Shown here piece after piece: positions 18,966 to 63,150 of a stretch of 64,000 nt of DNA. The DNA is from Octopus vulgaris (Eukaryota). The stretch's first letter is position 1, and every line of letters starts with the position of its first letter. Both the position numbers and the translations under genes were made by a program. Below the pieces are notes generated by a model. That model searched no databases, had not been told where the DNA came from, and was given only the letters and a program-made list of their open reading frames with translations. The stretch is taken from the NCBI GenBank assembly GCA_951406725.2, contig OX597825.1:18848001-18912000 (forward strand), in the 5' to 3' direction.

Positions 18966-19563
18966 CGTTTGTCTGTCCGTGTTTGTCCTCTCTGCGTTTA
19001 GCCCCTTGTGGGTAGTAAAGAAATAGGTAGTTCGTCTGCCGTTACGTTCTGAGTTCAAATTCCGCCGAGGTCGACTTTGCCTTTCATCCTTTCGGGGTTG
19101 ATTTAAAAAGTACCAGTTAATCACTGGGGTCGATATAATCGTATTAATCCGTTTGTCTGTCCTTGTTTGTCCCCTCTGCGTGTAGCCCCTTGTGGGTAGT
19201 AAAGACTTTGGTATTTCGTCTGCCGTTACGTTCTGAGTTCAAATTTCGCCGAGGTCGACTTTGCCTTTCATCCTTTCGGGGTCGATTAAATAAGTACCAG
19301 TTACGCACTGGGGTCGATATAATCGACTTAATTCCTTTGTCTGTCTTTGTTTGTCCCCTATATGTTTAGCCCCCCGTGGGCAATAACGAAATAAATATTC
19401 GTCTACCGTTAAGTTCTGAATTCAAATTCCGCCGAGGTCCACTTTGCCTTTAATCCTTTCGGGGTCGACAAATTAAATACCAGTTGCGTACTGAGGTCGA
19501 TCTAATCGACTGGTGCCACCTCAGCAAAACATTTGGGGCCTTGTGCGTAGAGTAGAAATGAAT
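18966..19563 (+). mobile_element. Tandem array of SINE A bodies (184-bp units) ending in an old-type tail
   Basis: Tail/body junctions at ~19025, ~19209 and ~19393; preceded by (TCTA)n at 18755-18965. Confidence 0.92.
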
Positions 19564-20154
19564 GTCTATCAATCTATCTATGTATGCTCGTGTGCATGTA
19601 TAACTGTTTTTCTGCTAGTAGCATTGTGACTAAGATGATATTTGCTTTACTAAACCGACAGATCACGAATGAAAACCTCGGGGAATCCAACTCTACTTAT
19701 AATCAATTATAGCACTCGAAAAGTTTAGAGGCCAGCCGAAATATTCCCACAATGAAGACGATAAGATCCAGAATTGATAGTAATGAAAGAATTAAAAGTA
19801 TCAATGACATCATTGATCGTATTGCTGTAGATTTTTGGCAGTTTCTATCCGTCCCTGATGAATATTGCGCAATAATTCTAGTGCCACAGCTGACGCTGCT
19901 ACTACTGCTGCTCTGCCGCTGCTACTGCTGCTGCTACTCCTACTGTTCCTATTGCTTTGAAGTTGAATTTTCGAATAATATCTTTATGATTCCTTTACTG
20001 ATAAATAAATATCGAAATATATCCACTGGTAGCCGATTTAGTATTTTTCTAGCAAAGAATCAAAGCAACAATGTTTCGCATAATACCACAGAGTAATCAT
20101 TTTATTTAAGGTCTGTACCCTTACTGCTCTGCTACATTAACAGAATACTTAGAT

Positions 20155-20914
20155 TTCTTTATTTTGGTCATAAGATCTAATATAGGACAGTACAGGACAA
20201 TACAAAACATTAGTAAAGAAATACTCAGCGAGCTTTTTTCAGTTGATTTTTCTTTTCACAAAAATATATTAAGTTAAAAATAGAGAATTTATATGAATAA
20301 AAATTTTGATTTCCTTACATTTTTTCTTGTTGATCTACTGTCCAACGGCTTTTTTTCCTTCTGGTAGATTAAGTAGGGACAGTCACTCCCAACTTCCTTA
20401 CCACATCCTTCCATCTTTTCTCATATATACTTCTAGACAGGTGTCTACTTTCCAGTCCTATCTTGCTTTTCAGGTGATACCTGAAGTAGTAAAGCATTCC
20501 AGGGCCAGAGATGAAGACCCCTAACTTCTTACCTTGTATTCTGGTTCTCCATGCACACTCTTTCATAACAGTGACTGTACACAGAAAACAGGCCTCACCT
20601 TCTTTGGGCAGTCCGGTGAGCGGTACATTCTTAATCACAGACTCAGCCGATATTCTTCCCAGATGTGACAACACGTGTTCTACGTAAATTGCCATCTCCG
20701 AAAGATGTTTACACTGTACAAGAGCATGCAGGATAGTTTCCTTCTCCTGTCCACCTCTTGGACATTCGGGTGGTACTGCAATTCCATGCCTAGACAACCT
20801 ATCGTGAACGGGTAATGCTTTCCTGAAACGCCGCCAGGTCAGGGAACTTCGGTAATTATCGAAATATCCCCACCGGAAAGTGTTCTGAAACATGTTGGAT
20901 AGCTGTTTCCCATG
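20155..20914 (-). mobile_element. 5'-truncated Tx1/L1-clade LINE with 17-bp TSD
   Basis: ORF 20369-20893 has the zf-RVT/CCHC C-terminus (ALPVHDRL..CPR..ETILHALVQC); TAACAGAATACTTAGAT at 20138-20154 and 20915-20931. Confidence 0.88.
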
Positions 20915-20960
20915 TAACAGAATACTTAGATAGCACAGATAATATCAATCTCTAATACAA

Positions 20961-21623
20961 TTAGTATATTTCATTGTTTACCTGTAAAAAGGTTTACATA
21001 ATGGGGACGTTACAAGGGCAGACAAGGGACATATAGGGTACAAACACGCTTCTTATATACAAGATGAAAAGACAGATGGATTTACATCTGGGTTGGGAGA
21101 TAAAAATATACGTGATGATTGGAAGGAATTTGGGTTCCGGTTCGTTATCCCTTTTGGTAATCTTTTTCATTTCTTTTATGTTCCGACCGACCGTGCAAGC
21201 ACAGACTGGAGCATTCTCATCTTTCTTACCACTGCCATCCAACTTTTTGCAAACGCTCTTTGCGGCAGGCTCCTCCTCTCCAGACGGATCTTGCTGGACA
21301 GATGGGCGGCAAAGTTATTCACCAGCCCACGTCCGGAGATGAATTGACCTGTCGCAATCCCTTTCGCTCGCGTCTTCCATACCACATCTTTCAGTATGGT
21401 TACTACGCAGAGAAAAGCTACCTTCTTTTCTTTGGTGAAAGAGGAAAGTCGTACAATATTTATCAGGGACTCGGACGAGAGCCGTACTCTTTCCGCATCC
21501 GACAACAGCTGTTCTGCAAAGGCCAAAGACTCCCTCAATTCCTCACAGTGTACGAAGGCGTGCGTAACCTTTTCTCTGGCACGCCCGCACCTCGGAACGT
21601 GGGGGAGGTGTTAATACCATGCC
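20961..21623 (-). mobile_element. Second 5'-truncated Tx1/L1-clade LINE
   Basis: ORF 21176-21538 is homologous to the neighbouring copy (SSESLIN, KDVVWKTR); possible TSD TCTCTAATACAA at 20949-20960 and 21624-21635. Confidence 0.82.
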
Positions 21624-21702
21624 TCTCTAATACAAGAAATAGAAGCCATTGTGGTAGTGAAATTCTAAACAGCATACCTTTTATCAATTGAAATGAAACA
21701 TA

Positions 21703-22123
21703 GGCGCAGGAGTGGCTGTGTGGTAAGTAAGTTGCTTACCAACCACATGGTACCGGGTTCAGTCCCACTGCGTGGCACCTTGGGCAATTGTCTTCTACTC
21801 TAGCCTCGGGCCGACCAAAGCCTTGTGAGTGGATTTGGTACACGGAAACTGAAAGAAGCCCGTCGTAAGAAAGAATATATATATGTGTGTGTGTGTGTGT
21901 GTTTGTGTGTCTGTGTTTGTCCACCCCAACATCGCTTGACAACCGATGCTGGTGTGTTTACGTCCCCGTAACGTAGCGGTTCGGCAAAAGAAACCGATAG
22001 AATAAGTACTGGGCTTACAAAGAATAAGTCCTGGGGTCGATTTGCTCGACTAAAAGGCGGTGCTTCAGCATGGCCAGAGTCAAATGACTAAAACAAGTAA
22101 AAGAGTAAAAGAGAGTAAAGAGT
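21703..22123 (+). mobile_element. Full-length SINE family B (tRNA head, CORE-like CCTTGGGCAA motif, internal microsatellite)
   Basis: A box TGGCTGTGTGG, B box GTTCAGTCCC, tail GAGTAAAA repeats; more than 10 copies in window. Confidence 0.92.
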
Positions 22124-22549
22124 ATATCCCCAATTACCAAGGCTGGCGCTGTTCAGGGAGATGAGGTAATAAGTATTAAATAAGTATTAAAGTATTTTTT
22201 TCTTTTTTGTATAGATAAACAACGTAACATTTCCCGGATGTGATAAATTGTTGCTACACGTGAAAGTATATTAATGTACGCCTCATACGGTCATTACAGC
22301 CATTTATCGAGTGCAATTTGAATATTTTTAGCGTATTGAACATCTCAATTACGCAACCAATAAAAACTTATAATTACAATTTATAAAACATAGAATCTAC
22401 AAATTTAAATGCTCAACCGTTTATCTATTTCTTGTTGAACTAGAAAGTACACATCCAAATTACCCACTAACTTGTTAGAGATATCGGATATGAGCGTTGT
22501 TATATCAACTATATTTTGTAGTTTCAGTCTCCCAGAATATCTAGAGGAA

Positions 22550-22624
<75 letters not shown>

Positions 22625-22636
22625 TATATTAAATAA

Positions 22637-23033
22637 GGCGGTAAGCTGGCAGAATCGTTAGCACGCCGTGCGAAATGCGTAGCCGTATTTCGTCTGCCGT
22701 TACGTTCTGAGTTCAAATTTCGCCGAGGTCGACTTTGCCTTTCATCCTTTCGGGGTCGATTAAATAAGTACCAGTTACGTACTGAGATCGATATAATCAA
22801 CTTAATCCCCTTGCCTGTCCTTGTTTATCCTCTCTGTGTTTAGCCTCTTGTGGGTAGGAAAGAAATAGGTATTTTGTCTGCCGCTACGTTCTGAGTTCAA
22901 ATTCCGCCGACGTCGACTGTGCGTATCAGCCTTTCGGGGTCGAAAAATTAAGTACCAGTCAAGTATTGGGATGCATGTGAGCGATTGTCTCCCTCTCCAC
23001 AAATATTCAGGCCTTGTTTCTGTAGTTCAAACG
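22637..23033 (+). mobile_element. SINE A dimer (head + young unit + old-tailed unit) between (ATT)n tracts
   Basis: Junction AAGAAATA|GGTATTTTG at 22867/22868. Confidence 0.9.
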
Positions 23034-23125
<92 letters not shown>

Positions 23126-23162
23126 TAGTAGTAGTAGTAGTAGCAGTAGTAGTAGTAGTAGC

Positions 23163-23199
<37 letters not shown>

Positions 23200-23489
23200 T
23201 TTTGTTTGACTGTTGCTTTACATTTGTACAGGTTGGCTCCAAGTCTTATACAGAGACCTCAAGACACAGCAAGTTAGATTTTCATGTTGGTGTTATGCCT
23301 AGGGTGCCATATATTTGGTTTTGTACAAAGAGGAAAATCAACCCACAAGGCCTTGGTTGGCCCGAGGCTATAGTAGGAGACACCTGCGCAAAGTGACACG
23401 CAGTGGGACTAAACCCGGAGCCATGTGGTTTGGAAGCAAGCTTCTTACCACACAGTCACGCATGCGCCTAGCCATACATACACAGACAT

Positions 23490-24240
23490 GCAGGAAATAG
23501 ACACCTCTAATTTTCAAAATCTTTTATTTACTACACAAAGCGAACAATTGAAATGTAATCGATAGGTAGGACTACTTACTTTAGTATTTAGTTGACATTC
23601 CCTTTGCTGTTTTTAATTCAGAAACTCTTTTTGGCATTGAACTGATGAGCTTTGTGATTGTCTCCTGTGGAATTTCTGCCCACTTTGCACGCAACAATCG
23701 AAACAATTCATCTTTTGATTTAGGTTTCTGTCGAGATTTTCTGATAGCTCTATCTAGTATGCTCCAAAGATTTCCAATTGGTTTCATGTCAGGAGATTGG
23801 CTCGGCCAAGTGCTTTTTTTTATCCCATTTTCAGCCAACCATGTAAGGAAATCAAAATTTCCTTTTTGATGTGTCGCATGGAACCCCATCTTCCATGAAT
23901 AAAAGCTCATTTTTCGTTATATTATCGTGTGAATATATGGGAAGTAGTCCTTGCTTAAGTATTTCGATGTATTTTTCAGAGTTTATGGTTCCAACACATT
24001 CGATCATCTCAGAACGACCATTGCTGGTGACAGCTCCCCATACCATTATAGAGATACCGCCATGTTTCACAGTTGGTTGCAATCGTTTCAAATCAAATTC
24101 TTAATTGGGAAGCCTCCAGACCCAAACACGTCCACTGGCTGAAAATAATGGAAGTCTGGATTCATCTGAGAAAATCACTCTATCCCAAAATGAACTGGAT
24201 TTCACTGACATCTCCTTAACCCTTTCACAATATCGTTAGC
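23490..24240 (-). pseudogene. Tc1-family transposase relic
   Basis: VIFSDES, PTVKHGGISIMVWG and WPSQSPDMKPIGNLW motifs; frameshifted. Confidence 0.92.
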
Positions 24241-24775
24241 ATGCAAATAGACGGATAGTGTTTATAACAGAGATTTCTACTGACGATAAAAGTAGCGATT
24301 AACTATTAATGTCGGTTCACCGTATTTTTCACGTTGTTTAAAATTTCTTTCTTAAATTAGCTGTACTCCACTGAAGTATTATACATTAATACGTATCTAA
24401 ATTAGACTGAGTTTCTCCGAAAGATTTACATTGTAAGACGACAGTATACATTATTAAGGCTCTATTATCTATTATATTAATCTAATTAACTGATAACATG
24501 TTAGTCTCCATTCGAGTACTGTTGAATTATACAAAATGTCTCAAGAATAATATAAGGAAACACACCGAAATGGTTAGAGACTATATAATTATGTTGTGAA
24601 GACCAACAGTCTGGTTATTAAAATGCTTGAACATATCCACGTATAAATGAGAGTCTTATAAACAGGGATTTATTTTTATTGGCCATTAGAGAATTACAAT
24701 TGCTATCATATGCTTAGATATGGTGGAAATTCGTCCTTGCTTTGGGAGAGCTTTTGAAATGGAGTATAGAGATTA

Positions 24776-25398
<623 letters not shown>

Positions 25399-25435
25399 CA
25401 TGTATAAGATGAGTAAGATATTTTAATATGTAAGC

Positions 25436-25640
25436 GTGAGGGTGACGTGCTGGCACACTCGTTAGCACGCCGGACAAAATGCTGAGCAGTGTTTTGTCCG
25501 ACTTCACTTTCTGGCTTCGAATTCCGCCGAGATCAACTTTGCCTTTTATGCTACAGGGTCTATAAAATAAGCACCAGCTGAACGCTGGGGTCGATGTTAT
25601 CGACTTACCTCCTTCCCCAAAGTGAAAATTTGGAACCTGT
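25436..25640 (+). mobile_element. Old SINE A monomer
   Basis: Diverged head and central domain. Confidence 0.8.
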
Positions 25641-26369
25641 TTTAAAAGATTATCAGTAATTTTACAACATAATACCTACTATATAAAATGCTGTAACTAG
25701 GAATAAAAGCTCGCGCTGGTTAGGATTACGGCTAGTGTTTATATATGTTTAGAAATACTTCATGCTACTAATCCCCTAATCCATGATTAAGACATTTTGT
25801 CATAGTGATAATACTGCTAGAATATCAGATTTGTTGGTTCTAGCTGCCACGTACAATTTGATTAAGTACTGGTAAATTTTACAATTTGGTTAACTGTGAT
25901 AAAGAAATTTCTATGTTATATCCTATAATCGATTTTAAAAAGACATATTATTAACTCGCCGCCTTAAGTTGTAAAGGATATTACGACATATATTGTTAAG
26001 CAATGCGCACTTTTATCATAACTTTTTCTGACTGCTAGCTCGGGGGCTAGCAATTTTGTGGGAACGGGAAAATATTTTACATCCACCCAGTAATCGACTG
26101 GTACTTTTTATTGACCCCAAATGTTGAAAGGATCTATTAGAATTCGGACTGTAAAACCGGAAGAAATGCTGCTAAAGCGTTTTCTCCAGCCTTCTAATTC
26201 TCCTGCTGGCTGACCGCCCAACGCTGTTTTTCATTATAATATTATGGTAAAATGCCACGTCGCATTGCGGTTTTGGATCCAACTTTACTTGAGAATGGGG
26301 CTTAGTTCTTTTCTAAATTCACACAGAATGTCGAATTTTCGCCTCTGTTATGTTAGTATATTGGATATT

Positions 26370-27346
26370 GGATCTTTTCAATTGTGTGGCCAGGAGCCCA
26401 GATCTTTCTACTTAACTAAATAATTTGAAACTTCGTATGCTGGTACAGTGTTTCAAAACAAGACACAGGTTGGAACTAGTTTATTTGAGAAAAATCTGTT
26501 TTATGACTTTAATCGTAGATTAAAACTGCGAATTTTAACCAATGAGATTGCTTGTTTTCATATTTAATACGTTACTGCATTCTGTTAGTGTGACGTAGAA
26601 AGCAGTTTTGTGACGTAGGCAACTGTGCACATTTGAGGCTAACATACATAGATACATACACACACACACACACACATACATACAGATACACATACACCGA
26701 GTATTCACTCGAAAAAACTAAACACTGAATCGGCCATACATACATACATACATACACACACACACATACATACACACACATACACACACACATACATAGA
26801 TACATACACACACACACATGCACACACATACATACATACAGATACACATACACCGAGTATTCACTCGAAAAAACTAAACACCGAATCGGCCATACATACA
26901 TACATACATACATACACACACATACATACACACACATACACACACACACACACATACATAGATACATACACACATACATACATACATACATACATACATA
27001 CATACATACATACATACATACATACATACATCATACATATACACATACACCGAGTAAAAAATTTCATCGTTATTGTTTTGTTTACATTTGTTTACATACC
27101 ATATGTTTACTACGTCACCAAATTGGTGGTCGAGACGGAGTAAATAATATGAAGCCGAAAGACGGAATACCATTGGTTAAAATTCTAATTATTAAACAAT
27201 GTTAAACTTAGAAGTTACAATTCCGTTTTCATTCTGGTTTACAATTAAGTTTACTTTTGACACATTCTACCAGTATACGAAGTTTCAAATTGTTTGGTTC
27301 AGTAGGAAAAATTTGAAAAAAACTGGCTTCACAAATGAAAAGATCC
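26370..27346. mobile_element. Foldback/MITE-type non-autonomous DNA transposon with an internal CA-rich minisatellite
   Basis: GGATCTTTTCA...TGAAAAGATCC ends; TTTGAAACTTCGTAT and AATTTTAACCAATG each mirrored on the opposite arm; ~137-bp repeat at 26640-27055. Confidence 0.7.
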
Positions 27347-28774
27347 TGGATATTTACTAGGAAATGCTGACAAGTTCTTGGCTTTGGGTAAAAGAAAATA
27401 CAGGAAGATCAGTTAATTATGATTTTATTGAACACATTCCTCTCTCCATTAGGAACACTTCTCGCAGAAGATCTTCAATTTTTTTAAGCTCTGTAAAACA
27501 GGGATAGGTGAATAGGGGTAAGTTACTTCAAGTGGAGTAAAAATGAAATTCTTGTGGGTAATGAAGACCTTAAAAAATGTGTTCATTCTTATGACAGAAT
27601 TTTTTCTTGTGACAACACTGCATTTGTCCTATGTAATGGACATGTAAAGAAATTACTATAAATAGGTTCGATAAAAAAGATTCAATAAAACTTTTGAATT
27701 CAAAGAATTTATGATTTTCTTCCTTTCAAATCAAAGTGGTAACGTCGGTCTAAATAAATATATTTGGGGACAATTGGTTAAAAAAGTTCCCCGACCCCTG
27801 TTGTAAAAGAACTCGGAATGTTGGGCCTCGAACCAGTACTTTAGCGATAGGTTTAAAGCTAGGAAGCTCTCTAAACTCCGGCCCCAATGCATATTGTGTA
27901 TGCTGTATATGTGTATATATAGTGGTGAGTGTTGAAGTGTCCACTCATAAATATACTATTATTTGCCTGATTTTTCTGTGTGTATGTGCGCGTGTAATTG
28001 CGTGTGTGCATGTGTGCATGTGTGCGTGCGTATATTAGTGTAAGTATGAGAGCATGTATCCATTGTTTAGTACAACTGACCAAATAATAAAGACAATCTC
28101 AATTTAAAATAGACTTCAGCACCTAAATATCTTTGCTATGGTCAGTTACTTTCACGCCCGCTTCTTCCTCCGGTTACTGCTGTCCCTTCACTTAATCTGA
28201 TTCTGTTTCGTCTTTGCTCATGAACTTTGTTCTTTTTTGCACCGTTTGCCATCCTCAACCATCCGCTCCCGCCACGTTCACATCACTTTCCAGTCTTCTT
28301 ACCATTTAACCTCACCTTCTCTGAACGTATCTTCTTCATTCCCGATAACACTGAGGCCAGTGTCCGCACTGATAATCTACAAGAGCATTAATTTATTTCG
28401 AAGAGGTTTCTTGGTGCAGTCGATCTTTAAGTCCCGCACACTCTAATTAAATTAGTATTTTCCTCCCCCTTGCCTCACTTTGACTTGATCCATTCATCGG
28501 TTGTCTCCTATGCCAGACGAATAGACATTTCATACTTCCCCTTCCTTTCCTCTCTCTTTCTCTCTTTCTTTCACTCTCCCCTTCCTCTTCCCCTGCCTTC
28601 TTCCTTTCTCTCTGTAAATGTATTCACACAGACACACACACACAAACACACACATAGATACATATTTGTATGTATGTGTGTGTCTATGGATAAGTACCAA
28701 TTGAACTCTGGGATCGATCTTACCGCCTCCCCTGAAATTGCTGTCCTGGTGCCAAAATTGTCATTGTTATTATA

Positions 28775-28816
<42 letters not shown>

Positions 28817-29972: not shown

Positions 29973-30970
29973 GGTATTTCGCCCGTGTTTATGTTCGGAG
30001 TTCTGATTCCGAGGAGGCCAAATTTGCCTTTCATCTTCTCGGAATATCAATTAATTTAGTAACAGTGGAACTTTCAGGACAATGTAATCGACTAGTCTTC
30101 GCGCCTAAAATTTCAGGCCTTGTGTCTATAGTAGAAGGGATTGTTATTATTACTACGTCATAACACAGTCTTTAACCGGAGTCTTTAGTCATCTGTCAAG
30201 TCACAATAAGGAACCCAGACAGATAATACTTTCCTTAAGATGTGCGCTGTTATTATTATTATTTTTATTGAGGCGGCGAGCTGGCAGAAACGTTAGCAGG
30301 CCGGGCGAAATGCTTAGCGGTATTTCGTCTGCGTTACGTTGTGAGTTCAAATTCCGCCGAGGTCAACTTTGCCTTTCATCCTTTCGGGGTCGATAAATTA
30401 AGTACCAGTTACGCACTGGGGTCGATGTAATCGACTTAATACCTATGTCTGTCCTTGTTTATCCCCTCTGTGTTTAGCTCCTTGTGGGTAATAAAGAAAT
30501 AGGTATTTCGCCCGTGTTTACGTCAAATTTGCCTTTCATCTTCTCGGAATATCAATAAATTTAGTAATAGTGGAACTTTCAGGACAATGTAATCGACTAG
30601 TCCTCTCCCCTAAAATGTCAGGCCTTGTGTTTATAGTAGAAGGGATTGTTATTATTACTACATCATAACACAGTATTTAACCGGAGTCTTTAGTCATCTG
30701 TCAAGTCACAATAAGGAAGCCAGACAGATAATACTTTCCGTAAGATATGCACTGTTATTATTATTATTTTTATTGAGGCGGCGAGCTGGCAGAATCGTTA
30801 GCACGCTGGGAGAAATGCGTAGCCGCATTTCGTCTGCCGTTACGTTCTGAGTTCAAATTCCGCCAAGGTCGACTTTGTCTTTCATCCTTTCGCGGTCGAT
30901 AAATTAAGTACCAGTTATCTGTCCTTGTTTGTCCCCTCTGTGTTTAGCCCCTTGTGGATAGTAAAGAAAT
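29973..30970 (+). repeat. Tandem duplication of [old SINE A body + Dong 3' fragment + young SINE A]
   Basis: 29973-30501 is repeated as 30502-30970; the junction is again AAGAAATA|GGTATTTCG. Confidence 0.9.
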
Positions 30971-31014
30971 AATAATAATAATAATAATAATAATTATCAT
31001 TATTATTATTAATC

Positions 31015-33257: not shown

Positions 33258-34464
33258 TCTAGGTTTGTTTTACCGCACAACAGCCAGTGGACATATCTGG
33301 CCACAGTGTTGTGTCGCCCTTTATATTCGTGTTGTGCGATCTTGCGGCACTCACTAACAATACGGTTTCTACTTTCTCCCTTCTCAGAACACATCCTACA
33401 TTGTTGCGAGTCACTGCTTTACTCCCCTTGACATTTCGTCTGTCTTTATGTTCTGAGTTCAAATTCCACCGCTGTTGACTTTGCCTTGGCTCGTGTCACT
33501 AACATTTCTTAATCATTTATTTGCTTTCAACCCAAGCATTATAATGTGCTTTTTCGCTCTTCCTTAGTGCTGTACAATGGTTCATGAATGTTCACGATCA
33601 CACGGGAATTTATAAAAGTCCACGAGAATCTATAAACGTTCACATTGATCTATAAATATCTATATGAATAATAATATCATTCCTTCATATTTCTGATTTT
33701 AGCGCTAAATAAATATTAGTTTTATCTCAGCTTCTGGGAAAGAACCTATTTTTATATAAATATAATGAAACAAGTATCTACGACTTTCACATGGACATTA
33801 TAGTAACTGAAGTATTTGATCTGTACTGGCTGTAATGGAGATTGCGCAGTATTTCGATTTGTAGCAAATTAGCATTTGCTAATGTTATCTTATAATTTAC
33901 CAATGTTAATTTTATAAAGCGAGTGCTTTAAATAATCAAAGATTTCGAAGGTAAGTGTGAATATAATTGGAGCTTTTACGACAGAATTTGAAGAGTTCAT
34001 GTTAATACTATTGATGAGGGAATGTGTGGGATGGAGAGATAAGACGAGAAAATGTAGACAGACAGAAATAACCAGATATAGACAGACAGATTTGGGAGAT
34101 TGTAAAGCAACAGTTGCACTCAAGACGTAATTACGTTTGAACAAATTCATGCCGTGTTTAAATAAATATATAAATAAAATCAACATTAGCTTTGGAGGGA
34201 AACACAATAATTGAGAAACGAGGCTACCAGATACCAGCAATAATTATAAACTATAAATAATAAATATATTGATGATTGCATATATGTGGTATGTGAGACG
34301 GGGAGTATAAGTGTAAAATGTTCTGCTGAATTCCGTGTCAACTTGTGTATCTAATGTCAGTCACATGGTTTACATTTCTGTGAGCATATACTTTAAGTGT
34401 GTTTGCAGAACGTGGCCAACAGATTGGTCTATGCTGAATATATTTGTAATCCTTTCATTTCACT

Positions 34465-34920
34465 GTAAGCAAAGGGCCTGAAATTTTCCGGAAAGGTGAT
34501 AGTGACTACATTAGCCCCAATACTTTGTATGGCACTTATTTTGTCGACTCCAAAATCATGAAACGCAAAGATGAACCCGGAGGACATGGAAATCTGAAAG
34601 TAAGGACAAAACGAATACCTATTTCTTTAATACTCACAAGAGGCTAAACACAGAGAGGACAAACAAGGACAGAGAAACGGATTAAGTCGATTACATCGAC
34701 ACCAGTGCGTAACTGGTACTTATTAAATCGACCACGAAAAGATGGAAGGCATAGTCGACCTCGGCGGAATTTGAACTCAGAACGTAGCCGCTGACGAAAT
34801 ACTACTATGTATTACGCCCGGCGTGCTAACGATTCTGGCAGCTTGCCGCCTTATAAGGGCAAAACGAATACCGGTAAATATTTTTCCTGCCGTGCTAACT
34901 ATTCTACCAACACGCTCCTT
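34465..34920 (-). mobile_element. Young full-length SINE A (34620-34853) nested in an old SINE A, with 19-bp TSD
   Basis: TAAGG(A/G)CAAAACGAATACC at 34601-34619 and 34854-34872; old head at 34873-34920, old body and tail at 34465-34600. Confidence 0.9.
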
Positions 34921-46137: not shown

Positions 46138-46492
46138 TTTAAGTCTATTACATCGACCCCAGTGCGTACCCGGTGCTTATTTAATCGACCCCGAAAGAAT
46201 GAAAGGCAAAGTCGGCCTTGGCGGAATTTGAACTCAGAACGTAACGGCAGACGAAATACCTATTTCTTTACTACCCACAAGGGGCTACACGCAGAGGGGG
46301 CAAACAAGGACAGACAAACGGATTAAGTCGATTATATTGACCCCAGTGCGTAACTGGTACTTATTTAATCGACCCCGAAAGAATGAAAGGCAAAGTTGAC
46401 CTCGGCGGAATTTGAACTCAGGACGTAACGGCAGACGAAATACCGCTAAGCATTTCGCCCAGCGTGCTAACGATTCTGCCAGCTCGCCGCCT
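46138..46492 (-). mobile_element. SINE A dimer
   Basis: Junction at 46260/46261. Confidence 0.9.
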
Positions 46493-50305: not shown

Positions 50306-50337
<32 letters not shown>

Positions 50338-50339
<2 letters not shown>

Positions 50340-50997
50340 TTCTTTACTACCCACAAGGGGCTAAACACACAGGGGACAAACAAGGACAGACAAAGGGATC
50401 AAGTCGACTACATCGACCCCAGTGCGTAACTGGTACTTAATTTATCGAAAGGATGAAAGGCAAAGTCGACCTCGGCGGAATTTGAACTCGGAACGTAACA
50501 ACAGACGAAATACGGCTACGAATTTCGCCCGGCGTGCTAACGTTTCTACCAGCTCGCCGCCTTCACACACACATATATCGGGACAGGCGTGGCTGTGTGG
50601 TAAGAAGCTTCCTTCCCAACCACATGATTACGTGTTCAGTCCCACTGCGTAGCACCTTGCACAAGTATCTTCCACTATAGCCTCGGGTCGGCCAAAGCCT
50701 TGTGAGTGGATGTGGTACACGGAAACTGAAGGAAGTCATAGCAACGTATATATATATGTATACATATATATTTTTTCTTTTATATATGTATATATTTGTG
50801 TGTCTGTGTCTACCCACCACCATTTGATAACCGATGTTGGTGTGTTTACATCCCCGTAACTTAGTGGCTCGACAAAAGTAATCGATAGAATTACAAAGGT
50901 TTACAAAGTATATAAATCCTGGGGTCGATTTGTTCGTGTAAAGGTGGTGTTCCAGCATGGCAGCAGACAAATAACTGAAACCAATAAAAGAACAAAA

Positions 50998-53096: not shown

Positions 53097-53654
53097 ATGA
53101 CAGAGGTAGTATTGATATCGAGAGGTAGTATTTACCCCCACTGAAAAAAAGTTATTACATATTCTTTGCACCTTCTTTGATTAAAAACTCAAACAACCAA
53201 TCGCTTAACTTCTTCTGGAAAGAATTGCAGCAGACCACAAAGAGCACACCACATGTATTGCAGGAACACAGGGGCTTCTTATTAGGAATTGTATGACACA
53301 ATAAATTCTGAACTTAGCATAAAGTAGAAATATGGACTAACGGAGGAGTATCATGGACTACTTCGAAAAGAAATGCAAAATGTGAGAATGCAATTATTTT
53401 CCTTTCCTGGTGGTCTTCAAACTATGAAAGAAAATAGTGTAGTTTGTAATAAAATCATGAGAGATATAGGATGTAAATTACCAGAATCCAAAATACGTAT
53501 ATAAATGGTTTCTTTTACAGGATGCATTTCTTTTACTTCATTTATATCGCTTATAAGATAAACTAAGCAATGTTCATCACACAATATCATCGTTTGTTTT
53601 ATTTATTTATAAAGAATCAATATATTTTAAAATGTCCTATATATGTATCATACT

Positions 53655-54076
53655 CTTCTACTCTTTTACTTGTTTCAGTCATTTGACTGTGGCCATGTTT
53701 GAGCACCGCCTTTAGTCGAGCAAATCGATCCCAGAACTTATTCTTTGGAAGCCTAGTACTTATTATATCGGTGTCTTTTGCCGAAACGCTAAGTGACGAG
53801 GACGTAAACACACCAGCATCGGTTGTCAAGCGATGTTGGGGGCGGGGACAAATACGGAAACACAGACACATAAGCACACATACACACACACACATATATA
53901 TATACATATATACGACGGGCTTCTTTCAGCTTCCGTCTACCAAATCCACTCACAAGGCTTTGGTCGGCCCGAGGTCATAGTAGAAGACATCAGCCCAAGG
54001 TGCCATGCAGTGGGACTGAACCCGGAACAATGTGATTTGTAAGCAAGCTACTTACCACACAGCCACTCCTACGCCT
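53655..54076 (-). mobile_element. SINE family B, full length
   Basis: Family match. Confidence 0.92.
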
Positions 54077-54299
54077 ATTATACTGTTAATTATTCTAACT
54101 CAAATTTTACCTTGTTTTTTTCTTTTTGAAGTTTTTATTTGTGACAGGAGACAAATCGTAAATTTACTGAATTCCAATTTTTTTTTATACACATCGACCC
54201 ACTTTAATTTGTTTTACATGTAAGATTTCTCTGATTATTTTAAATGAAACACTTTCACATTTCAGTTCCTGGAATATTTTCTAAAACCAATGCGGCTCC

Positions 54300-54505
54300 C
54301 CGGAAGGATCGCAAACACACTGGGCAAAATACTTAGCGGCATTTCGTTCGTCCTTTCGAATTCAGTTCAGATTCCGCAGAGATCCACTTTGCCTTCCATT
54401 CTTTAGGGATCGATAAAATAAGTACAAGTTGAACACTGAGATCGATGCAATCCACTCATCACTTCCACCAAAATTGCTGGCATTGTGCCAAAACTTGCAA
54501 GCAAT
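54300..54505 (+). mobile_element. Old SINE A monomer
   Basis: Diverged family match, old tail. Confidence 0.75.
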
Positions 54506-55559
54506 ATTTTTTAAAACCCGAATCTTGAATATATAATTTCGCGAAAGTTAGTCATAAAGCCAGAAGCCTCATATTTATTAAGGATGATGAATGTGATTCT
54601 GTGACGTTCATGCCTTTATCTGATATCGATTACAAACGTCCTTTCTAATTTTTGACAATTCCCGTATTTAAAATATTCTTTTAGTATTTGCATGCGCATT
54701 GCTCATTGAGCATAACTTTTGTGAAATATAATTCACACGTTAAACAGTGATAGATTTTGTTTCCGTAAGCAATTATTTCAGAGTAAAAAATGACACCCGT
54801 AAACGCTATCTGAATAACACAGATTTTTTTCATCGACTAAAATAATGAATTTTAAAATTTTAACGAAAGCTCATTTATACGTTGACAGTCGCAGATCGGT
54901 TTAAAAATATTAATGTATTTTGAACACGGAAAGGAAGTTTATAGTTTTCGTAGAAATTATAGTTATTAATGTTAATTAACTTTAAAATAATTACTCGTTG
55001 ATATACCACTTAGGATTTTCTGAAGAAAAAAACCAATTAATTTCCTTGTAAAAATCATCGATTTCTAGAGTGTTCAATAATAAACAGCCCCAAAAGTTGA
55101 ACTGATAAATGTCAAGACTAACATACAAATGTCGACACACACTCGTGATTCATCGTGTCCTTGGTCAATTAATTCACCTTTGAACACTCGTGTGAACAGA
55201 GTTTAAAAGGAGGAAGAAGTGATCGCTACAGATTTAGCAGATTCACTTTCATATTTGTGTTTTGTTAAATTTAAGAGTGAAGAATTGAAATTCTATACAA
55301 TGCAATAAATTGTAGCAGCTATATCCCTCACAAACAATTGCTGACCGTCAAAAGTCGCTCACATTTTGCGGTTGCATAAATCGCTATTAACGAACAACCA
55401 GCGATATCACAATCACGAAGTTGCTACACACTTAGTTTCATATTCCATTGGCGAAGAATTCGAAGAATATCGTATACTATTATTCTATTTGTAAATGGAT
55501 CTAGACCAGGTAAATGTGATTTCCAAGGAATGGCCAGCGTATGAGAAATATCAATATAT

Positions 55560-55775
55560 TGGCTTCAGATTTTTTCACAAGGCCAGAAAGTTTGGGGGCA
55601 GGGCTAAGTCGATTACATCGACCACATTATTCAACTGGTACTTATTTTATCGATCTCGAAATGATGAAAGGCCAAGTCAACTTCCACGGAATTTGAACAC
55701 AGAACGTAAAGACGGACAAAATGCTACTAAACATTTAGCCAAGCGGGCTAAAGATTCCGTTAACTGGCCGTCTTA
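55560..55775 (-). mobile_element. Old SINE A monomer
   Basis: Diverged family match, old tail. Confidence 0.8.
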
Positions 55776-57295
55776 GATATATTAAAATATCAACTAAAAT
55801 CACTATTTCACATCCGACCCGTTTCAAGAAACGCTCTGTGAAATTTAATTCTGGATGTAGAAAACTTTAAGATCTAGGTTGGAACACAGATTTCTCTGAT
55901 AAAAAATTATCCGTGGAGCAAAACAACAGCAAAATCCATATCTTTAGATCTACGGTTGATATGTAAATGAAAGTTAAGCTATACTACTGAGACTACGACG
56001 GGATTTTGAATCAGTTCAGTATTTATACACATTTCACGCTGGGACATAACTTGCTACCGTTTATTTTATCATTCTGGATACAAAGAAATATTTATTTATG
56101 CATATATATTATCGTTGTAGTCACGATTGAATTTCAATGTATGCATGGCATCGTTTCCATATACACGATGCAGTAATATTTGCTTTGATCTCAATTTTCT
56201 TCACCTTTTCGGGTCCAAAGTAATATTTCATAGTAAAATATTTCACGTCAACGCTTAACGCATCGCATAATTTCCTAAACTGCAAATGCATCCCTAAAAT
56301 GATGCACTGAGATACTTTACTGATTTTAGTTTCATCACTGTAGTAATAATATTCTTACCAATTTTACACCTGAACATACTCTCTAAGCCTTTTAACTCGG
56401 TACTTCCACACTTAACAGGAGATATTAACACATTTTATTCTGAGATTTGCATTCTATCCACTCAATACAACGAAATATTAATATTAGATTTGAAGAGAAA
56501 TATTTTATGATTGCTAGTATCGAAATGTTCTTTCTTCCACACAGCGAAGACGTGTGTATCAATAATTCCCCTGTATATCTGATTCCTCTATGTGCTGCAT
56601 CAATCATCGATACATATTTTAAGTTTTGACTTGATATTTTATTGTGCAGTAAGATGATACACTATCACATTTTCCCATTGAAATCCTTTCAATTCACAAT
56701 ATGCAGTAACATATGTACATATATTATAAGACTATGTACGAAACTTGACACTAATTTCATTCAAAACGGTATAATTTGTGTTGATGTAAGATAGAAAATA
56801 CAAACAGCATTTCTGAACAAAATCTACATTATTTATGTAAACACATGATGATTGTAGATTTTTATTGAATAACGTTTCAGCGTTACACTTCCGATGTTCT
56901 AGACATAATAGCTTTCATTTATGCATCTATTACATTTTGCTTTCTCATTTCTTTTTACTCCGATACATGCTGGAATATTTCATATGATATCTTGATTTCC
57001 ATACACTAATAGTTAAGAAATATTTCAACTCAGTTTATCCTTACAGATTGATTCAATGGATAGATCGGACGTTTGTTTTCGATGCAATTCAATGCAACCC
57101 GTATACCAAGAACACGATGATCGTCCGATTAATTTGAAATAATTATAAATATAATTTTCAGTGAACTATATTTACAGTACAGCTGGTAAGCCCAACAATA
57201 ACTGCATTGTTTTACCTGACAAAATGCATAATCAGATAGATGGGAGGAGAAAGATCGTCCTGTTCATTAGAAAACCGGCACATAAGCGCCCCATA

Positions 57296-57731
57296 AGCGG
57301 TATTTCGTCTGCCGTTACGTTCTGAGTTCAAATTCCGCCGAGGTCGACTTCGCCTTTCATACTTTCGGGGTCGATAAATTAAGTACCAGTTACGCACTGG
57401 GGTCGATGTAATCGACTTAATCCATTTGTGTGTCCTTGTTTGTCCTCTCTGTGTTTAGCCTCTTGTGGGTAGTAAAGAAATAGGTATTTCGTCTGCCGTT
57501 ACGTTCTGAGTTCAAATTCCACCGAGGTCGACTTTGCTTTTCATCCTTTCGGGGTCGATAAATTAAGTACCAGTTACGCACTGGGGTCGATATAATCGAC
57601 TTAATCCGTTTGTCTGTCCTTGTTTGTCCTCTCTGTATTTAGCGCCCTGTGGTTAGTAAAGAAATAGGTATTTCGTCTGCCGTTATGTTCTGAGTTCAAA
57701 TTCCGCCGAGGTCGACTTTGCCTTTCATCCT
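57296..57731 (+). mobile_element. Headless SINE A tandem array (~2.3 x 184 bp)
   Basis: Unit starts at 57299, 57483 and 57667. Confidence 0.92.
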
Positions 57732-58292
57732 TATCGAAGAAATGGCATATGAATGGATGTTGAACGTGCACAGGTTGGATGGGATATTTGTGAGCAAGAC
57801 GTGTTTGTGTTGATGGCAACGGCTGCAAAATACTTAAAGCAATTAAAGTGACACAGGAAAATACAATTTCAGCAGGATTGACTTTAAGAAAGTAATACGG
57901 GAGGTTATTCTCGAAAGAAAAAAGATTCAATGTCTTGTTGAATGTTTTTGTTAATGGTTATTTCTCTTGCGTTTGAGGTATTGCAAGAGGATCCAATGAT
58001 TAGTTATCTGGCAGAATCTATTCGGAATGAGACTCACGGTAGCATGACTTGGACGTCAAACGTCACGAAACATCCCTGAGAGAGAGAAAGGGAAAGGAAG
58101 AAAACAGGATAAGAAAGAACGAAAGAGTGGGAGAGCGAGGGAGAGAAGGAAAAATAGAAAGAAATAAAGAGAGAAAAAACAAAGAAAGAAAGGGATTCGT
58201 GAAAATACGATTAAAATCCTGAGAATGTAAGGAATGGAAAAGGTAAAACACGGACTACAATCGTTTCATAAGAAAGCAATGCTTGTATGCGA

Positions 58293-58348
<56 letters not shown>

Positions 58349-58349
58349 T

Positions 58350-58545
58350 CATCATCATCATCATCATCATTGTTCGACCGTGGTCGAGACAATGGAATTT
58401 ACTATGTTACGCCAGACTTCACGGTCCATCATAGCATTACGGAGGTCCTGTTGCTGGATGCCTGTATCCCTGGAGATTACATCAGGGTAGGAGAGTGTGC
58501 GCCCTCTGGTATTGCGAGTAGATGGCTTCCAGAGGAGAAGAGTAG
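58350..58545 (-). mobile_element. RTE-clade LINE 3' end with (TGA)n tail
   Basis: [31 protein letters not shown]-terminus. Confidence 0.8.
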
Positions 58546-58604
58546 AAATTACTTCTTTTTCACACACACACAAGAACACACACATACACAGACAATTAGA
58601 CATA

Positions 58605-58605
58605 C

Positions 58606-58697
<92 letters not shown>

Positions 58698-58714
58698 AGT
58701 GGGGAGAGATATAA

Positions 58715-58747
<33 letters not shown>

Positions 58748-58750
58748 TAA

Positions 58751-58801
<51 letters not shown>

Positions 58802-58859
58802 TAGGTAGATAGATAGATCGATGGATGGATAGATAGAGAGAGAGAGAGAGAGAGATAGG

Positions 58860-58923
<64 letters not shown>

Positions 58924-60184
58924 CAAACAGACAGACACAGAACGATAGATACATACATATAACTACATAAGCACGAATGTAGTTATGCTTGCATAAATAC
59001 TTATGCAGAGATCTATGCGCACGTACACACTGACACACAACTAGATATAGATATAAATACACAAATATATACGTATGGTTGTGTGTGAGTGAGTGCGTGA
59101 GTGAGCGACTGGGTGAGTGAGTGAGTGAGCGAATGAGTGAGTGAGTTAGTGAGTGAGTGAGTGAGTGAGTGAGTGAGTGAGTGTGTGAGTGAGTGAGTGT
59201 AGGGCATGTACCTGCCTTAAGTTTTGTATTATTTATCGTTCATTAGATGTGTATTTTTTTTTTGCTTTGTGACTTGACTCAAATATTTTTACAAACTTCA
59301 TATAAATAATAATCCGAGAGTATCAACAACAAAATGTAACACAAGCAAAGACTGAACTCACAATGTTTCCATATATATACATAGAGAAAGAGGGAGAGAA
59401 GACCATAATGAAATGCTAGTTGTTGCCAAGTCTTCGAATCCACCACAGTTCTAGCATGGTTAACGTATACATTCGGATCGATAGGAATGTATAAAGTATA
59501 TCAGTTGCTCGTTAGACATTTAAATTAATCTCTTACACACCATCTGTTCGCAATGGTCGGAATTTGGAGGAGGAAAAAAGCCTACAGATCTTATACGACG
59601 TTGTTAGAATGACTGTTTTAACTTTCTTTACTGAATTACTAAACAGATCATTAAGTTAATCTCAGAAATGCTATCACTTCCGACAATCGAACAGCTGAAA
59701 TGAAGCGGCTAGTACAACTTCAGTGAAACCGTTCATTTTCGCGGCGAAATTCTTTGAACATCTTCGAATGTATATACAATCGCAAGACACTTTGATGTTC
59801 GGATTGTTTGTCTGCTACACAGAGAAAATTATATCTTTCTGAAATTCATTGATTCATCGTGATATTTAGAAAAGTACCGGTATCATAGCTGCGTACACAA
59901 ACATTACATATACGTTCGGTTAACAAATATACGCGTGCGGTTTTCACAGTTAACGTTTCTGTACCTATTTCTGTATACATAAGACTATTTGGACACCCAC
60001 GTATTTTACACATAGACAAGAATATGTGTGTGTGTTGTGAGGGCGTGCGTGTGTGAGTGTGTGAATACGTACGGGTATGTGTGTGTTTGTAAAAAGAGAA
60101 ACAGCGGGGAAGGTACATGGTCAAATAGAGAGGTAGACAGATAAATAGATGGATTAATAGTTCGTTAGACAGATAGGTTGATAG

Positions 60185-60215
<31 letters not shown>

Positions 60216-60289
60216 GATAGATAGATTGATAGAACGGTAGATAGATAGACAGATAGATAGACATATAGATAGGTAGATAGATATATAGA

Positions 60290-60323
<34 letters not shown>

Positions 60324-60338
60324 TACAGACAGATATAT

Positions 60339-60381
<43 letters not shown>

Positions 60382-60424
60382 GATAGATAGATATATAGAT
60401 AGACAGACAGACAGGCAGACAGAC

Positions 60425-60506
<82 letters not shown>

Positions 60507-60545
60507 ACAGTCAGGCAGATAAACAGGCAGACATTCAGACAGACA
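58605..60545. repeat. (GATA)n, (GTGA)n and (GATA/GACA)n microsatellite blocks
   Basis: 58605-58925, 59085-59200 and 60170-60545, separated by unique sequence. Confidence 0.9.
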
Positions 60546-60956
60546 CACAAATACATACATACATATACATATGTTTTACTAGTAAACATTCTCTCTTTCT
60601 AGAACGAATCCGAAAATAGCTCGGCCACTTTCGATAGGTTATTGCCGATATATTAAGCCTATCAAATCAATTCGTCCCTGTGAAGGAGGAAGCACTCTAG
60701 AGCTAACTGTGAAAATACTAAAAGTAACAGACGTCCATTTTAACTCACTTGGATATCAGCATATCCACTGTCATTTTCCATTATATAGCCGAAGTACAGA
60801 CACAGCGTTTGCTTGAATAAATTATAATTTCATAAGCATACGTCCAGTCACTATTAAGCTCCTTAATGGATATTTGTACGACCACACACACATGCACACA
60901 CACACGCATACACACACACACACATGAACGCACACACATACACACAGAGAGACAAA

Positions 60957-61450
60957 GGCGTGGCTGTGAGGTAAGAGGTTTGCTTCTCAACCTCATGGCT
61001 CCGTGTTCAGGCCCACGATGTGGCACATGAGCAAGTGTTTCTACTGTTGCTTCGGAATGACCACATCCTTGTCCGTGGATTTGTTAGATGGAAACTAAAA
61101 GAAGCCTATCTTATATAAATACACACACACACACACACACACACATATAGTTACATGTGTGGGTCTGTATTTGTATGTGTGTGTGCATGTGTGTAGGTGT
61201 GTGTATGTCAGTGTTTGTGTGTATGTGTGTGTGTGTGTACATGCGCGTGTATGTGTGTGTCATCACGTCTATGTTTGCCCACTCCACCGCCCGCTTGATT
61301 TGTTTATATCTTGGTTTGTTTATATTGTAATCAAAAGAGACAGATAGGATAATTACTAGGCTTTAAAACATCAAGTACTGCGGTCAATTTTTCGAATAAA
61401 CCTTTTAATGTGGTACCCCAGCATGGCCGCCGTCCAATGACTGAAACAAA
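60957..61450 (+). mobile_element. SINE family B, diverged
   Basis: Family match. Confidence 0.8.
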
Positions 61451-61508
61451 AAATATATGTATATGTGTGTGTGTGTGTGTGTGTGTATGTGTGCGTGTGT
61501 GTGTATGT

Positions 61509-62737
61509 TAGGTCCTCCCATAAATAATACGCTTTTTATATACATCTTTTATTTCTCAAAAATTAAGATAAACAAAGTTCTTTTTAATCTAAAATATATT
61601 CACCTTCATTATGTACAGTGCTCTTCTATCTAGTAGACTTGCAAGGAACCTCTTCCAAAATTCACTTGGCCGCGAGGAAAAATTCTTCTCTTGTACTGTT
61701 CTGACCTCGTCTATAGAATTCATGTTTTCTCGGTCCAAATTATCTTGAAAACTGCGGAATAAATGATAATCAAATGGGACAATGTCCGGCGAATATTGTG
61801 GGTGGGACATCGTTTACCATTCAAACTGCTCCGGCCTTACGAATGTCATACTCTCTGTATGTGGTTGAGCATTATCCTGATGGAAGAACACTTTTCGTCT
61901 CAAAAACAAAGATTGTCATTTTCTTGTAGTGCTGACTTAAGCTTCTAAAGCTGCTCGCAGTAGATTTCCTTTCTTATCTCTTGATTTGTGTTTAAAATTT
62001 CAAAGTGGACGAAACCTTTCCTATCCCACCAAACAGATAACAACTTACGTGGGTGAAGACCTTCTTTGGCCTGGGGTGCCAATGTTTCTCCTTTCTCTAC
62101 CCATTTTCTTCTGCGCTTGACATTGTTAGAGAGAACCCGTCTCTCATCACCAGTCACTATTCGGCCCCCAAAATGTTCATTTGTGAGATGTAACAGCAAA
62201 GGATCGCACGGTTAGACTCGCTAAGTTTGTAAGAAACACAATGACCCAATTTGCTGGCTTTTCCGATGGCATGCAGTGTTCGAGGATTGGTTGAATGACT
62301 AGATCCAAGCTTCTCTGCTAGTTCCTCAGCCGTTACAGTGGGATTTTGGTCCACCAGGATTTGCAGAACGTCCTCATCGAGCTTTGCAGATTTTCCACGA
62401 CGAGGTCCGTAGTTCCGGCTCAGAATTTTTGGAACCACCGTTGAGACTGGCTTATGTCTATTGTCCGATCCCCATTTATTGCATTCACATTCCTTACGCT
62501 TGCCTTTGTGTTGCCTTTATTGAACTCACACAGCAAAATATGCCGAATATGTTCCCTTGTCATTTCCATTATAGCTTTGAAAAATAACTGTTAAACTCGA
62601 ACTGCACTCTTCAAAACTTGCACTAAGAATAAGTCAAGGTAAAATTACTTCTTGCTTTTGTAGTAAGTTGATGCAGGTAGAGTATCCCGTCCCCCTCCGA
62701 TTTTTACTTCATGCATTGAAAACATCGCATTATATAT
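61509..62737 (-). mobile_element. Near full-length decayed mariner transposon
   Basis: HTH (TAEELAEKLG), RIVTGDE, LSVWWD and HPQYSPDIVPFDYHLF; frameshifts; TIR at 61509, other TIR partial. Confidence 0.92.
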
Positions 62738-62749
62738 AATACATATTCA

Positions 62750-63150
62750 GGGCAGGGAACTGGCAGAATCGTTAGCACGCCGGGCGAAATACTTACCGGT
62801 ATTTCGTCTGCCGTTACGTTCTGAGTTCAAATTCCGCCGAGGTCGACTTTGCCTTTCGTCCTTTCGGGGTCGAGTAAATAAGTACCAGTTACGCATTGGG
62901 ATCGATATAATCGACTTAATCCGTTTGTCTGTCCTTGTTTGTCCCCTCTGTGTTTAGCCCCTTGTGGGTAGTAAAGAAATAGGTATTTCGTCTGCCGTTA
63001 CGTTCTGAGTTCAAATTTCACCGAGGTCGACTTTGCCCTTCATCCTCTCGGATTCAATAAAGTTAGTACCAGTTACGCACTGGGATCGATGTAATCGACT
63101 TAATCTCTTACCTTAAATTTGAGGCCTTGTGCTTCCACTAGTGAGGATTA
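62750..63150 (+). mobile_element. SINE A dimer (head + young unit + old-tailed unit)
   Basis: Junction at 62981/62982. Confidence 0.9.

Follow-up and report, generated by a model that had tools for sequence, protein, structure and literature searches.

A young octopus SINE inserts preferentially at a fixed position within older members of its own family, probably with the aid of Tx1-type LINE enzymes

Young copies of an octopus SINE, family A, insert site-specifically into resident copies of the same family. Junctions of the young tail with position 48 of another family-A copy occur far beyond chance. The explanation that we favor, with moderate confidence, is that the young SINE has repeatedly inserted at position 48 of its older kin, likely by way of the enzymes of Tx1-type LINEs.

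The element and its landing site

The young family-A SINE has a length of ~231 bp, and the unit repeated in its arrays is 184 bp. It is short, non-coding and highly repeated, as SINE2 elements are, with 59,934 exact matches to the young tail genome-wide. The head carries box-like Pol III A and B motifs, recognized by eye against a consensus, and position 48 lies between these putative promoter boxes. ARAGORN found no tRNA within the window, which is the whole stretch of 64,000 nucleotides that was analysed, and the single SINE copy queried in Rfam had no tRNA match.

All 13 young tails claimed for the window in the original prediction were recovered. As had been proposed, ten continue into position 48 (19025, 19209, 19393, where the site is decayed, 22867, 30501, 34620(-), 46261(-), 57482, 57666 and 62981). 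The remaining tails, at 4687(-), 30971 and 50337(-), stop outside this site, and their ends differ by one base from those first given (4686, 30970 and 50338). The older tail type assigned to distal units is present, with tail ends near 19563, 23033, 34465 and 63150, and the 184-bp period was found at 18968-19511 and 57299-57732. The features of the window are as follows.

4687-4917, minus strand: solo young element; non-family target starting with GG
18967-19025, plus strand: tail-only young unit, 5′-truncated, abutting a (CTAT)n tract, with no resident head upstream
19026-19393, plus strand: pair of young 184-bp units, both starting at position 48
19394-19563, plus strand: distal unit with the old tail type
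22637-22867, plus strand: complete young element, its head a variant of the young type
22868-23033, plus strand: distal old unit starting at position 48
29973-30271, plus strand: old resident body and unique flank, the first copy of a ~300 bp duplication
30272-30501, plus strand: element of the youngest sub-lineage, carrying a 9-base reverse complement of the junction
30502-30776, plus strand: old body and flank, second copy, starting exactly at position 48
30777-30971, plus strand: neighbouring young element of a different sub-lineage, with an internal deletion and an (AAT)n end
34450-34619, minus strand: 3′ duplication copy and what remains of the old resident, which differs from the young consensus by 26%
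34620-34850, minus strand: full-length young element with its own head, inside the resident at position 48
34854-34872, minus strand: 5′ copy of a 19-bp target-site duplication, 18/19 identical to 34601-34619
34873-34919, minus strand: head of the strongly diverged resident copy
46139-46491, minus strand: young element (46261-46491), then a 3′-truncated unit from position 48
50337-50561, minus strand: solo young element of a sub-lineage preferring TATAT targets
57299-57732, plus strand: 2.4 units of 184 bp, headless and cut at the 3′ end
62751-63150, plus strand: young element (62751-62981), then an old-tail unit from position 48

At the locus 29973-30971 the 5′ end was resolved on a neighbouring head.

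The rate in the window (10/13) overstates the preference, because in an even genome sample 26 of 80 tails, and overall 76 of 202 sampled young tails, lie at position 48; the latter sample still contains one LINE tail (L260). A second landing site, position 15 of the family copy, received 12 of the 202, five of these 12 in one array. Genome-wide, GGTATT stands directly 3′ of 28,214 of the 59,934 exact tails and CGTATT of 270. Genome samples taken at even spacing, 1.2 Mb in total, contained 28 tails followed by GGTATT, 24 of them at position 48, whereas 57 of the 624 free GGTATT hexamers lay there (binomial p 2e-17, the expectation including the sites that the junctions themselves make).

Insertion into resident copies

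The tail was back on the site in 20 of 24 independent loci in which a new head follows it. Bases specific to the resident are repeated on both sides in 11 of these 20 loci, and this was also seen at window 34620. Target-site duplications are ~14-16 bp, with a peak at 14-15 bp, and their variable length is that of SINE2 elements. Duplications scoring at least 9 flank 35 of 61 solo young copies, compared with 1% of shuffled pairs. The insert at 34620 appears to be shared with related organisms, because their contigs run into it; in three of four runs they do so on both sides, and in the other run on one side. At L114 contigs of related organisms break within the repeat. The proposal of site-specific integration into residents thus stands as a preference and not as a strict rule, and it has been amended: sub-lineages differ, position 48 is not the only site, and local duplication has contributed to the growth of some arrays.

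The homology-based resolution of the 5′ end that had been suggested is supported in an altered form, in which the young strand overwrites positions 49-62, and often the head. Resident variants at positions 49-62 were kept in one of 32 cases, which indicates that young sequence usually overwrites the front end of the resident. One-headed dimers retaining these resident positions were rejected for old distal units on the same count (1/32).

It had been recognized that all dimers might descend from one dimeric master. When proximal and distal units were compared, the distal ones were more diverged (median 0.097 vs. 0.038, n = 20, p = 0.001), and the 34 distal old units examined have several tail types and include no near-identical pairs, the best pairwise identity being 0.947. 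The diversity and greater age of the distal units argue against a single master dimer. They also bear on a broader alternative, that after a few founding insertions most dimers and arrays arose from multimeric donors transcribed and retrotransposed whole, although 34 units are too small a sample against thousands of small donor families. Such donors would account for the single head and the lack of a 5′ duplication at 42 of 46 head-bearing junctions, for duplications around whole multimers (4/11 old ends and 5/12 young ends), and for headless truncated arrays such as window 18967-19563 within its (CTAT)n tract. Four 5′-truncated tails at position 48 without an upstream resident head (window 19025, L342, L353 and L364) fit re-mobilised multimers or deletion better than insertion into a resident. 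Two-headed insertions with resident-specific duplications, however, represent independent events, and solo copies in unique DNA show the GGTA preference as well (25/108, 89-fold over background). Neither the age of heads (p 0.29 and 0.40) nor that of flanking duplications separated the resident from the whole-dimer model. We regard whole-multimer copying as the main source to be very unlikely.

Still less probable is an origin of the junctions in DNA-level events, in which neighbouring copies undergo unequal crossover or slippage. Adjacent young units do share variants more often than in permutations (17/108 over positions 101-160, against a permutation maximum of 12), there are long homogeneous arrays, for example 10 units near C1:4.677 Mb, and SINE-derived satellites of reptiles have been ascribed to this route (PMC10702118). 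These processes can account for the growth of arrays, but not for their birth. Neither process can explain why the junction is fixed at the last base of the tail and position 48, where homology is absent, or how full-length inserts came to be flanked by duplications and young units fused with old subfamilies unrelated to them. As a main cause they are contradicted because two-headed insertions carry duplications.

Tx1-like LINEs

Sequence comparison shows homology between the young tail and Tx1-like LINE 3′ ends; with one of these it has in common a 26-base identical stretch and the last six bases. No LINE with the whole SINE tail identical was present among the matches listed in genome searches. 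A LINE family whose tail is closely related occurs almost exclusively at one base in the head of a second SINE family, family B: 35 of 36 ends that bear the tail lie there, 34 of the 35 being clear by eye. The same site was found in at least 14 of 20 LINE ends chosen by protein similarity, which include intact frames of 1140-1150 aa. A zf-RVT domain was detected in the LINE L273, and RVT_1 and zf-RVT domains in the homologues P0001 and P0002. The C-terminus of the family-B-targeting LINE is 40% identical to P0001 over 63 aa, and the best solved relatives of related LINE proteins are human L1 ORF2p. The partner LINE is likely to be Tx1-like, a label given on the basis of domains and targets. 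Other Tx1-like families with related tails end in (TATC)n, (ATT)n and (TC)n tracts. An RTE partner, the first guess, was dropped because the tail matches zf-RVT LINE ends.

Among the matches listed in genome searches, whose patterns could miss one, no LINE lay at position 48 or 15. There were none at family-A sites among the 20 LINE ends and none before position-48 sites at 538 such sites (~2 Mb of loci). The family-B site of the LINE with the closest tail received only 1 of 202 SINE tails. The L087 LINE family has the last part of the tail in common, and its four ends had no common target.

Sub-lineages and target choice

Sub-lineages of the young SINE differ in the fraction of targets that start with GG: 19/21, 53/80 and 3/27 (Fisher p 3e-8 for the extremes), with median divergences of 0.032, 0.038 and 0.051, respectively. 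With non-family targets alone the extreme sub-lineages gave 10/11 vs. 1/22. In the scoring of non-family GG targets, window 30501 and L324 were counted by mistake and are really family sites; an earlier non-family set of 134 tails included ~21 LINE tails, which were excluded from the later sample of 202. A replicate of the third sub-lineage, scored by eye in the first 100 of 16,239 matches, a few of which overlap the earlier sample, had 18 GG and 51 TAT. That sub-lineages prefer different sites is a hint of a possible part played by the RNA of the element itself in aiming.

Before the tail, both the youngest SINE lineage (shuffle p 0.002) and the LINE (shuffle p 0.001) have nine bases that form a perfect reverse complement of the target or junction, a match that was searched for only after the junction had been seen. 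Four stretches, one of which missed the LINE tail, were folded, and none was significantly stable (z 0.65 to -1.15). We tentatively entertain a heritable aiming tag in the SINE RNA, in which read-through flank and the complementary segment would pair with nicked DNA. If this is true, each sub-lineage passes its own target to its descendants, and a self-aimed lineage makes its own landing sites, an RNA-guided, self-reinforcing system that works through an unmodified LINE enzyme.

Pairing has also been considered in a stronger form, with no dedicated enzyme, in which a loosely specific Tx1 nuclease nicks widely and the SINE RNA selects among the nicks. Read-through flank from the donor locus and the short complementary segment before the tail would match the target, and copies at position 48 would send daughters to position 48 in a self-reinforcing loop. 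The young consensus is without a four-T run, and Pol III is therefore predicted to read into the flank. The target classes are discrete (GGTA, TATA, AGAA and GATA) and mirror abundant donor contexts; the differences between sub-lineages and the 9-base complement in both LINE and SINE are in keeping with this, as is the repetition of one target G at some slipped junctions. On the other hand, the commonest lineage has GG in 53/80 without a perfect complement, the complement was sought post hoc, and the link to lineage is also explicable by different enzymes or ages. Non-family targets match the position-48 site for six bases and then the likeness fades. Aiming by the element's own position 48 was rejected, since the base there had no effect on the target (12/878 vs. 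22/1,430). The duplications hold the bases of the resident, and overwriting of the 3′ duplication from RNA was not supported: GGC-type residents keep their own base in 7 of 9 informative loci, and at unique targets the mismatches that approach the class motif were about as many as those that depart from it (9 vs. 7), both scored by eye. Selection by RNA without a dedicated enzyme is possible, and we consider it rather unlikely.

Proposed mechanism and significance

In the explanation that we favor, insertion at position 48 would occur by target-primed reverse transcription with enzymes supplied by a Tx1-type LINE whose targets are SINE heads. A sister enzyme of the LINE at the family-B site may nick the family-A site. 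The finished cDNA would usually pair with the homologous head of the resident and overwrite it, so that a single promoter and a unit of 184 bp remain; in approximately 1 in 10 cases it would join without homology, leaving two heads. Repeated insertion, together with local tandem duplication, would build the arrays. Pairing between SINE RNA and target probably sharpens the choice of site, and it is probable that the enzymes that mobilised the sub-lineages, or the periods in which they moved, were not the same.

By landing in its kin, a SINE stays clear of genes and retains a single promoter in each cluster. It also gives rise to satellite-like arrays, and dispersed and tandem repeats are in this way linked by a defined route. 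Since such arrays are nested insertions, they should not be annotated as separate SINE families. Whether the target is set by the LINE endonuclease or by the RNA is a standing question for site-specific non-LTR elements and the tools derived from them, and insertions in the tens of thousands, when grouped according to sub-lineage, offer a natural experiment on it.

Comparison with known systems

Ohshima and Okada reportedly described the tRNA-derived octopus SINEs OK, OR1 and OR2 in 1994, and family A may be one of these. OR2 is named in PMC4758252.

The closest known case is that of the crocodilian SINEU-1, -2 and -3, which Tx1-Mar LINEs probably mobilise into two spots of another transposon (PMC4494074). 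As in the octopus, the SINE is likely mobilised by Tx1 and prefers fixed positions in a repeat, with two hot spots; tandem copies sandwich a target-site duplication, and SINE families differ in the spot that they use (PMC4494074). SINEU, however, inserts into a Mariner transposon unrelated to it, and has heads derived from snRNA and poly(A) tails (PMC4494074), whereas the octopus SINE targets its own family, has a LINE-derived tail, and overwrites the resident with its 5′ end.

Among sequence-specific Tx1 LINEs, Tx1L inserts in Tx1D, Keno in U2, and Kibi and Koshi in microsatellites (PMC4494074). The octopus Tx1-like families at simple-repeat tracts are similar, and one is at a SINE head, which is not among the Tx1 targets named in that source. 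For R2, R1 and SART1, short annealing of RNA to target has been proposed to aid accurate priming (PMC7265360), and co-transcribed target sequence strengthens specific integration of R2 (as cited in PMC4494074). These differ in being autonomous LINEs of rDNA or telomeres (PMC7265360), and lineage-specific target choice by SINEs does not appear in the available text of PMC7265360 and PMC4494074. The SINE-derived satellites of squamates are also tandem arrays formed from parts of SINEs; they are attributed mainly to unequal recombination (PMC10702118), whereas in the octopus the boundary of the repeat unit is the insertion site itself.

Young tails and their landing sites

The window has a GC content of 35% and many microsatellites, and it contains all of the 13 young tails and 10 junctions originally noted. 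The 24-base young tail occurs without mismatch 59,934 times in the whole genome (2.8 Gb, 227 contigs), followed by GGTATT in 28,214 cases and by CGTATT in 270. Positions refer to a computed 231-base young element of SINE family A, which has a tRNA-like head (head, 1–47; unit, 48–231). An even sample of 120 evenly spaced 10-kb stretches had 26/80 tails at position 48, the main landing site, and 10/80 at position 15, the second. Among all loci picked independently of the junction, 76/202 tails were at position 48, 12/202 at position 15 and 6/202 elsewhere in the family. Position 48 holds 24 of the 28 tails preceding GGTATT in the even sample, vs. 57 of 624 free GGTATT hexamers. The site preference is real and its effect large, but the genome rates at position 48 place the window's 10/13 above what is general.

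Arrays also occur. In one, position 15 is the junction between successive 217-bp units, five in all (L180:730-2031); two others, which repeat every 264 and 235 bp, contain the young tail (G000:C1:7184617-7186009 and C1:14455771-14456548). The array at window 57299-57732, without head or final tail and cut at both ends, may be a DNA-repair capture.

Insertion into resident copies

A search for the site with a new head no more than 30 bases beyond it returned 103 matches, the first 30 listed representing 24 loci. The tail returns to the site in 20 of these 24, and in 11 of those 20 bases unlike the young consensus lie on both sides of the insert. At window 34620 a full young element lies inside a 26% diverged resident copy, with a 19-bp duplication containing one mismatch; in solo young copies duplication lengths peak at 14–15 bp. 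These loci bear out site-specific integration of young copies into residents. No empty allele was recovered. Distal units, beyond the junction, were more diverged than the proximal units bearing the tail: 0.097 vs. 0.038 for old distal units (n = 20) and 0.048 vs. 0.034 for young ones (n = 22). A single dimeric master element was not seen. Distal units carry several old tail types, and among 34 distal old units, a small sample that many small donor families would fit, none had a partner above 0.947 identity. This diversity of the distal units also argues against the copying of whole multimers as the main origin, which is improbable; it is a secondary route, and four headless truncated cases at the site, including window 18967-19563, may be re-mobilised multimers.

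Old-tail copies at eight loci (L068, L082, L087, L090, L100, L156, L160, L164) have 14–17 bp duplications, frequently starting with AATAT, a pattern that points to a similar enzyme aimed at a different target.

Resolution of the 5′ end

The resident head is retained ahead of the new head at only 4/46 head-bearing junctions. Where it is not retained, the proximal unit shares 1/32 resident variants in positions 49–62, which indicates that the duplicated bases were overwritten by the young strand. Heads at junctions are mixed, some resident-like (divergence 0.20–0.27) and others with young variants. At window 29973-30971 the duplication of an old body and its flank runs from position 48 as far as a neighbouring head, and each of the two young elements comes from a different sub-lineage. 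This is most simply explained by a cDNA whose synthesis was primed at position 48 and completed on the neighbour's head. The proposed resolution of the 5′ end by homology is supported in modified form: the young strand overwrites resident bases 49–62 and often the head, and this locus shows resolution on a neighbouring head. Neighbouring young units in arrays have extra variants in common, indicating that local duplication also extends arrays. DNA recombination is thus a secondary route; as the main cause of the junctions it is very improbable.

The SINE head plus 11–29 bases is repeated in tandem at the 5′ end of some insertions (L036, L048, L056-L060, L228-L230), with at least seven copies at C5:87.87 Mb.

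Candidate partner LINEs

Several LINE families with zf-RVT and a likeness to L1 have ends homologous to the young SINE tail. Their domains and targets mark them as probable Tx1 elements. The nearest named relative of a LINE protein from this genome is from Argonauta hians, so the animal is probably an octopus. Tracts at the family ends are (TATC)n, (ATT)n and (TC)n. In one family a 26-base stretch and the final six bases are the same as in the SINE tail, and 35/36 of its tail-bearing ends lie at a single base within the head of a second SINE family, B. A young sister LINE with intact frames uses the same site in no fewer than 14 of the 20 ends inspected; of the others, two sequence stretches began inside the site, two lacked the tail and one had it cut. 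Only 1/202 family-A tails lies there. In weak searches, no LINE was found at family-A positions 48 or 15 among the genome matches listed or in the LINE ends and loci examined.

Loci of the family-B-targeting lineage, young intact copies included, are L331, L380-L415 and L420-L439. A very abundant young Tx1-like family lies in (TATC)n tracts (L250-L309, e.g., G000:C1:51619-52068); it has 27,455 candidates, and intact frames of 1149 aa are numerous. The (ATT)n-targeting family forms head-to-tail full-length arrays with a period of ~5.87 kb.

Tx1-like features
G000:C4:93.80-93.83 Mb, contigs C47 and C50; L370-L379: (ATT)n Tx1-like arrays
Window 20411-20905 and 21194-21595, minus strand: two Tx1-like LINE 3′ fragments nested side by side, one with an apparent 15-bp duplication

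Target choice and mechanism

The most likely mechanism, held with somewhat better than even confidence, is that a Tx1-type enzyme from the lineage that targets SINE heads would nick position 48 and copy SINE RNA starting from the tail, after which the 5′ end would be resolved through homology; pairing between RNA and target probably contributes. In most of the first 100 matches listed of 1,041, the junction carries a second copy of the tail's final six or seven bases, as expected from slippage at priming.

That the RNA sets the target and the enzyme itself is loose is a possible but doubtful account. Three variants just 5′ of the tail differ in landing on GG, the first target bases (19/21, 53/80 and 3/27); with non-family targets only, the first gave 10/11 and the third 1/22. 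The third has 16,239 matches, and among the first 100 listed, counted by eye, TAT followed 51 and GG 18. Non-family target starts were enriched over background 89-fold for GGTA, 6-fold for TATA, 16-fold for AGAA and 18-fold for GATA (n = 108). The first variant, the youngest, is reverse-complementary to the junction over 9 bases (shuffle p 0.002, sought post hoc), and the family-B-targeting LINE has in its 3′ UTR, ~80 bases before the end, a 9-base segment reverse-complementary to its own target (shuffle p 0.001, also post hoc). As the young element lacks a run of four Ts, its transcripts would include the donor's flank. However, the complement is missing from the commonest variant, the base at the element's own position 48 does not influence the target, and different enzymes or ages could yield the same link between lineage and target. 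In one sub-variant the complement is lengthened to 12 bases, giving an inverted repeat around the tail.

Comparison with known systems

The open-access literature searched yielded no account of octopus SINEs targeting their own family. The accessible text of a study of an octopus counts 13 L1-Tx1 families and 900 SINE families as active and does not mention targets (PMC13282606). Within the family-A system, the lineage-specific choice of target and the complementary segment most merit testing. SINEU and Tx1-Mar have Mariner as their target, where two hot spots are used and tandem copies occur (PMC4494074). The family-A system is real: it is probably Tx1-driven, target-specific SINE mobility, new in that the target is not Mariner but the SINE's own family.
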